From Escherichia coli (GTDB lineage Bacteria; Pseudomonadota; Gammaproteobacteria; Enterobacterales; Enterobacteriaceae), in NCBI RefSeq assembly GCF_003334335.1, contig NZ_QOWQ01000015.1: a stretch of DNA of 64,000 nucleotides. One strand, given 5' to 3'. The position numbers were made by a program, and so were the translations under genes. Of the stretch, positions 61,247-62,227 are shown one piece after another. The notes under the pieces were generated by a model. That model was not told the DNA's origin, made no database searches, and saw only the letters and a program-made list of their open reading frames with translations. Positions within the stretch are counted from its first letter, which is position 1; every line of letters begins with the position of its first letter.

Positions 61247-61579
61247 GGTAGGGCTTACCTGTTCTTATACATAAAAGCAACAGAATGGTAACATTTTATC
61301 GCGGGTAAGCCAATTGATCCCCGTCATTTATCTGGCTATATCCTGAGCGGCCTTTGCTTTGTCTGTTTCTTACTTTTGCCCTGACGTTTTATTGGATTTT
61401 TATCGACGATACTCTCCGTTTAAGCGGCAGGTTTCCGCTGTACGTAAAAGAACCGGCCAAAGAATTGCAGTAAATATGTTTTATTGCGTTACCGTTCATT
61501 CACAATACTGGAGCAATCCAGTATGTTCATTCTCTGGTATAGTGCCAGCAGTACTTTTGGCAAGGATTCAGACATCGTG

Positions 61580-62227
61580 ATGGGCGTAAGAGCGCAACAA
61601 AAAGAAAAAACCCGCCGTTCGCTGGTGGAAGCCGCATTTAGCCAATTAAGTGCTGAACGCAGCTTCGCCAGCCTGAGTTTGCGTGAAGTGGCGCGTGAAG
61701 CGGGCATTGCTCCCACCTCTTTTTATCGGCATTTCCGCGACGTAGACGAACTGGGTCTGACCATGGTTGATGAGAGCGGTTTAATGCTACGCCAACTCAT
61801 GCGCCAGGCGCGTCAGCGTATCGCCAAAGGCGGGAGTGTGATCCGCACCTCGGTCTCCACATTTATGGAGTTCATCGGTAATAATCCTAACGCCTTCCGG
61901 TTATTATTGCGGGAACGCTCCGGCACCTCCGCTGCGTTTCGTGCCGCCGTTGCGCGTGAAATTCAGCACTTCATTGCGGAACTTGCGGACTATCTGGAAC
62001 TCGAAAACCATATGCCGCGTGCGTTTACTGAAGCGCAAGCCGAAGCAATGGTGACAATTGTCTTCAGTGCGGGTGCCGAGGCGTTGGACGTCGGCGTCGA
62101 ACAACGTCGGCAATTAGAAGAGCGACTGGTACTGCAACTGCGAATGATTTCGAAAGGGGCTTATTACTGGTATCGCCGTGAACAAGAGAAAACCGCAATT
62201 ATTCCGGGAAATGTGAAGGACGAGTAA
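61580..62227 (+). CDS. fabR: TetR-family repressor of unsaturated fatty-acid synthesis FabR
   Basis: ORF track 61484..62227 (247 aa from leftmost start); start uncertain, ATG 61580 gives 215 aa ([20 protein letters not shown]..), ATG 61523 gives 234 aa. TetR HTH region [22 protein letters not shown]. Confidence 0.85.

Follow-up and report, generated by a model that had tools for sequence, protein, structure and literature searches.

Translation of fabR in Escherichia coli probably begins at an adjacent GUG-AUG pair downstream of a conserved promoter-like element

The fabR gene of Escherichia coli is very probably translated from an adjacent GUG-AUG pair at positions 61577 and 61580 of the window (the whole stretch of 64,000 nucleotides analyzed here), with the upstream part of its open frame being non-coding and containing the gene's own promoter. 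The product would be a TetR-family repressor of 216 or 215 amino acids with few residues ahead of its DNA-binding domain. A promoter-like block and a Shine-Dalgarno sequence in front of the pair are conserved as DNA, and published ribosome profiling detects a signal at 61580 and none at the upstream ATG at 61523; which codon of the pair predominates we infer from conservation, spacing and the ranking of the profiling calls. The start of fabR is an ordinary annotation inconsistency that has already been documented and is largely answered by published ribosome profiling.

The window carries oxyR, sthA, fabR, yijD and trmA in this order, with sthA on the minus strand and its start codon at 61246; all other features located below are given on the plus strand. 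Positions 61250-62230 are 100% identical to many E. coli genomes, K-12 derivatives included, and an offset of +4,099,544 converts window positions to those of MG1655 (NC_000913.3). In a profile search, the FabR equivalog NCBIfam NF008402 matched the open reading frame of the window with 413.6 bits (cut-off 151), aligning profile positions 1-206 of 211 with residues 32-237 of its 247-residue translation, and precomputed Pfam annotation places TetR_N (PF00440) and TetR_C_46 (PF21943) on the representative of its 99%-identical cluster (P0001) and on orthologs. The sthA / fabR / yijD (DUF1422) context is kept at orthologous loci. Compared to E. coli FabR (YijC; UniProt FABR_ECOLI), we find the same gene in sthA-fabR-yijD-trmA synteny and no biological difference, and the sole difference between resources is the annotated start (247, 234, 216 or 215 aa). 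FabR of E. coli is a TetR-family repressor of fabA and fabB that responds to unsaturated acyl thioesters, and from the identity with the K-12 gene it is safe to assume that the FabR encoded in the window is this repressor.

In its 215-aa form, the fabR coding sequence comprises 61580..62227, including the stop codon TAA at 62225-62227, as delimited by the FabR profile, the profiled initiation site and an ATG that is present in every ortholog bearing the MGVR motif. At its other end, the sequence TAATG (62225-62229) joins the fabR stop codon to the overlapping ATG of yijD (62227..62586), a DUF1422 membrane protein gene recognized as an open reading frame and by synteny; the two genes are syntenic across Enterobacterales, and their stop-start overlap suggests translational coupling. 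Among 5,426 complete E. coli genomes, RM13322 (L103, 3109-3915) is the sole one that lacks fabR: its match ends at window position 61549, and around 800 nt of unannotated, partly low-complexity sequence (poly-G/C) take the place of fabR and the yijD start, which could stem from either a deletion or misassembly.

From 61448 onward, just past a TAA at 61445-61447, the fabR frame is uninterrupted, and assuming uniform codons the chance of 44 stop-free upstream codons is around (61/64)^44 = 0.12, so that an open upstream frame with few NTG codons is unremarkable. The preliminary description of this DNA had named candidate starts at 61484, 61523 and 61580 for proteins of 247, 234 and 215 aa, for which coordinates and lengths are right, but it had counted three in-frame ATGs where there are two, because 61484-61486 is TTG. 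The hydrophobic character that it had ascribed to the N-terminal extension is borne out by translation. The same is true of its observation that the short form alone abuts the helix-turn-helix domain, given that the family profiles begin only there: position 1 of NF008402 corresponds to residue 32 of the 247-aa frame, which is the GTG at 61577..61579 (216 aa, MMGVR...). Its choice of 61580 was sound in rejecting the long extension, in line with the profiled initiation at +57, but overlooked this adjacent GTG. The start ambiguity that it had described was misframed in this respect, and the choice that remains is between ATG 61580 and GTG 61577. We note that a 73-aa open reading frame with a TTG start (61359-61580) crosses the spacer in another frame and ends at the fabR start, with no sign of being a gene.

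The extension was followed through an ortholog set of 80 Enterobacteriaceae loci and eight loci of the Buttiauxella group, giving 89 loci with the window. Stop codons and frame changes run counter to the conservation of the extension as protein that the preliminary description had named as evidence against the short form. An in-frame stop lies no more than 19 codons upstream in 41 of the 89 loci, and an in-frame ATG at -19 codons is confined to the window and five other loci of Escherichia, being absent from E. albertii, where a 1-nt insertion shifts the upstream ATG out of frame, and from all other genera. In Salmonella, a stop codon interrupts the fabR frame 10 codons upstream, and in-frame translation outside Escherichia meets stops or shifts of frame in almost all genera. 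Variation within E. coli is too low for a test of coding constraint on the 201-nt region, for which 5405 of 5426 genomes show an identity of 99% or more. We found no homologs with a hydrophobic leader, as the N-termini of distant orthologs are short or hydrophilic and unrelated to the extension; Vibrio-like relatives, for example, carry hydrophilic N-terminal tails of 15-23 residues. As judged from these comparisons, the extension is not conserved as a protein. The Pseudomonas aeruginosa protein DesT (PDB 3LSJ/3LSP/3LSR), a homolog of the TetR family that regulates the synthesis of unsaturated fatty acids, aligns from residue 4 of the 3LSJ chain with residue 35 of the 247-aa frame (E 8e-30) and therefore also has few residues before its DNA-binding domain, though as a distant homolog in another genomic context it is uninformative on the choice between adjacent codons.

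For the longest form, these comparisons leave practically no probability, and initiation at the TTG at 61484..61486 is refuted in practice. While no NTG codon precedes it in the open frame and a few database entries carry the resulting 247-aa protein, TTG is a weak start codon that here has no Shine-Dalgarno sequence, lies merely 11 nt past the stop codon of a symporter gene remnant (see below) and is not conserved outside Escherichia. In addition, an in-frame stop separates this TTG from ATG 61523 at a locus deposited as E. coli (L007).

Start-site mapping by ribosome profiling, which had been suggested as a check, is available from the tetracycline-inhibited ribosome profiling (TetRP) of Nakahigashi et al. 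2016 (DNA Res 23:193, PMC4909307), where fabR is row 58 of Table S2. The new initiation site is an ATG at 4159147 (U00096.2) with a shift of +57 and a second candidate at +54 (PMC4909307, Table S2), which correspond to ATG 61580 and GTG 61577, respectively. At the new site, TetRP gave read depths of 47.9/32.7/43.2, compared to 0/0/0 at the 2006 start (PMC4909307), that is, ATG 61523, in data that represent one set of growth conditions. No N-terminal peptide of fabR was found (PMC4909307, Table S2), and the authors note that neighboring codons have almost the same depth and that differences of one codon were beyond resolution (PMC4909307). With signal downstream and none at the annotated start, fabR follows the pattern of the 154 genes in Table S2 whose 2006 start was moved downstream (PMC4909307), but what sets it apart is a further start codon immediately next to the first, which the method is unable to distinguish. 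FabR is absent from the TRAINSPOTTER supplement lists, the texts of the Ribo-RET preprint and Weaver 2019 contain no mention of fabR, and neither the gene nor nearby coordinates occur in the searched text of the SMRT-Cappable-seq and Kim 2012 studies.

Conservation of the upstream region takes the form of DNA elements. In an alignment of 20 genera of Enterobacteriaceae, the sequence TCTCTGGTATAGTGC is invariant and followed on its 3' side by a variable spacer with indels of 1-2 nt, the motif A(A/G)GGATTCA with almost no variation among 87 sequences, a short variable stretch and finally GTGATGGG. The distance between the TATAGT hexamer and the ATG ranges over 37-42 nt, and each of the three phases is represented (36, 34 and 18 loci), so that coding constraint is no explanation for this invariant block, which argues for a DNA element. 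In the true coding sequence, by contrast, 87 unique sequences agree throughout at no more than 6.5% of third codon positions and at none of 74 four-fold degenerate sites, indicating that neutral sites are saturated in this sample. Within the block, TGGTATAGT at 61535..61543 is the predicted extended -10 promoter of fabR and agrees with the TGnTATAAT consensus in five of six positions of the hexamer and in the TG. Extended -10 promoters are TGnTATAAT-like, do not need a -35 element and start their transcripts around 7 nt past the hexamer. TGnTATAGT or TGnTATAAT also occurs at loci of the Buttiauxella group, Tatumella, Dickeya, Musicola, Pantoea, Rouxiella and a Pectobacterium-like lineage, with Enterobacterales families other than Enterobacteriaceae among them, and the 64-kb window contains one match to TGnTATAGT with a chance expectation of 0.73. 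Conservation and consensus together favor an extended -10 promoter of sigma-70 as the reading of the TGGTATAGT block.

From the position of this element, the transcript that it drives would start near A61550 and have a short 5' leader (61550..61576) of around 27-30 nt. This leader would bear the Shine-Dalgarno sequence AAGGA (61562..61566) at distances of 10 nt from GTG 61577 and 13 nt from ATG 61580, and folding of the region 61550-61615 yields less structure than that of shuffled controls (-6.8 kcal/mol, z +1.46). A transcript start near 61550 would leave ATG 61523 off the main mRNA. Further upstream, folding predicts a terminator-like hairpin of 8 bp, ATACTGGA-GCAA-TCCAGTAT (61505..61524), within a region (61495-61560) that folds with -17.2 kcal/mol (z -2.9). 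If transcribed, this hairpin, which is not conserved outside Escherichia, would pair the GGAG at 61510-61513 and the AU of ATG 61523.

The sole match of a generic promoter scan, TTCACA-17-TATGTT at 61499-61527, is at chance level with an unconserved -10 and was rejected as the main promoter; its TATGTT overlaps ATG 61523, so that this promoter would likewise exclude the 61523 start. A second block at 61487-61505 (GTTACCGTTCATTCACAA in E. coli; consensus GTAAACAATCATTCACAA; columns 60-79 of alignment A1) is conserved in most Enterobacteriaceae. With ca. 33 nt between it and the -10 element downstream, it is too distant for a -35, and the GTAAACAATCATTCACAA block could be the site of a regulator. 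We considered a FabR or CRP operator in the conserved block upstream of the promoter, but the resemblance to the consensus sequences was unconvincing.

The origin of the open upstream frame becomes apparent from other strains. In O157:H7, UTI89, Nissle and others, intact genes for an M20 aminoacylase and a citrate-proton symporter lie between sthA and fabR. Identity of the window with the O157 arrangement starts near 61437-61439, and a remnant of the 3' end of the symporter gene (61438..61473) is followed up to its stop codon TAA at 61471-61473. The K-12-type window therefore retains the last 12 or so codons of the symporter in what looks like a deletion scar, and by this alignment the extension frame is the old spacer between symporter and fabR, terminator-like hairpin included. 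This origin accounts for the difference between Escherichia and other genera upstream of the promoter. The frame that starts with TTG 61484 or ATG 61523 would then be non-coding spacer that is stop-free by happenstance in Escherichia.

These features bear on the one long form with support in reference databases, a proteoform of 234 aa that would be specific to Escherichia and bear a hydrophobic tail at its N-terminus. The ATG at 61523..61525 would be its genuine start, either primary or conditional. The codon has a good GGAG 9 nt upstream, its reading frame is intact in E. coli (with the near-identity of the region described above) and four other lineages of Escherichia, it is used by MG1655 RefSeq NP_418398.3 and UniProt FABR_ECOLI, and in O157-type strains transcription continuing past the symporter gene could place it on an mRNA. 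Nevertheless, we regard this reading as very unlikely: the codon is restricted to Escherichia and its frame lost in E. albertii, it drew no TetRP reads under the one set of growth conditions profiled, it is situated upstream of the conserved -10 element and outside of the coverage of the family profile, and its ribosome-binding site would be buried in the hairpin. As a caveat, symporter read-through transcripts could include ATG 61523 in strains with that gene.

With initiation at the GUG-AUG pair as the preferred reading, the remaining question is the division of labor between its two codons. One option, to which we give slightly less than an even chance, is that GTG 61577 is the main start, resulting in a 216-aa protein with a Met-Met-Gly N-terminus, and that ATG 61580 encodes an internal methionine. 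Of 87 unique Enterobacteriaceae sequences, 81 carry GTG and six carry ATG as the triplet ahead of the ATG, so that G to A is the only change of this triplet and a start codon is always retained; its second and third bases are invariant while the leader positions -4, -5, -7, -8 and -9 vary. Given that none of the 74 four-fold sites is invariant in the same sample, this invariance of [A/G]TG reflects selection and not neutral drift. The Shine-Dalgarno spacing of 10 nt compared to 13 nt for the ATG, the ATGATG of Tatumella, and the placement of both NF008402 position 1 and the start called by NCBI PGAP at this codon point in the same direction. Conservation of FabR begins at G-[VI]-R-A, and the start drifts by a few codons among families, with likely initiation a few codons upstream of G-V/I-R in Dickeya (L096/L097, MTAGRIMGVR), a Pectobacterium-like locus (MSVGRVMGVR) and Proteus (L107, GTG-initiated MSNNIGIR), which makes an internal methionine in Enterobacteriaceae plausible. 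On the other hand, TetRP places +57 (the ATG) ahead of +54, initiation is weaker at GUG than at AUG, the strongest start codon, and the preceding codon is not a start codon in several lineages: it is TAT in Plesiomonas (with a stop five codons upstream), AGA in Pantoea sp. Nvir, ATA in Musicola and Hamiltonella, GTT in Rouxiella and the ortholog P0049, and AAC in P0111.

Alternatively, ATG 61580 would be the main start of a 215-aa protein with glycine as the mature N-terminus after methionine removal, and the GTG would be a conserved part of the leader or a minor back-up, which we consider possible at somewhat below an even chance. This codon is the top call of TetRP, benefits from the strength of AUG, is the sole start common to the lineages with a non-start preceding codon, and was the start of fabR in the 2014 GenBank record U00096.3 according to Table S3 of the TetRP study (PMC4909307). 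However, its distance of 13 nt from the Shine-Dalgarno sequence is long, TetRP is unable to separate adjacent codons, and the invariance of [A/G]TG is unexplained by neutral drift. On balance, we give the two codons about the same chance of being the main start and slightly favor the view that both are usable, with GTG 61577 as an alternative or tandem start that is marked by profile position 1, conservation and its rank as second TetRP candidate.

The forms of 247, 234, 216 and 215 aa all coexist in public collections. The MG1655 record NC_000913.3 places fabR at 4161067..4161771 and thus begins at ATG 61523 (234 aa, NP_418398.3), UniRef attaches the name FABR_ECOLI to the 234-aa sequence, and NCBI PGAP starts the gene at GTG 61577 across E. 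coli genomes (WP_001309117.1, 216 aa). The 2014 GenBank version U00096.3, in turn, had fabR at 4161124..4161771, corresponding to ATG 61580 and 215 aa (PMC4909307, Table S3). The curated MG1655 gene thus seems to have been shortened from its 2006 length of 234 aa to 215 aa in 2014 and then returned to 234 aa, and someone may have had reason for this reversion. A 247-aa FabR is filed in a 90%-identity cluster that is represented by a citrate-proton symporter of 438 aa, probably an artefact of read-through or fusion gene calls at the symporter-fabR junction.

The 19-residue hydrophobic extension in the MG1655 RefSeq and UniProt records is unsupported by comparative or published profiling evidence, and FabR that is cloned, modelled or quantified from these records would bear a spurious tail. 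The choice between GTG and ATG amounts to a difference of one residue and of N-terminal processing. It is conceivable, though rather unlikely, that the two adjacent starts ([A/G]UG-AUG) are both functional and under selection in Enterobacteriaceae, giving rise to two N-termini, and that strains with the symporter gene might also make some 234-aa FabR by read-through. If true, FabR would occur with Met-Met-Gly (methionine retained) and Gly (methionine excised) at its N-terminus, and the two forms could be unequally stable or serve to adjust how much of this low-abundance repressor is present.
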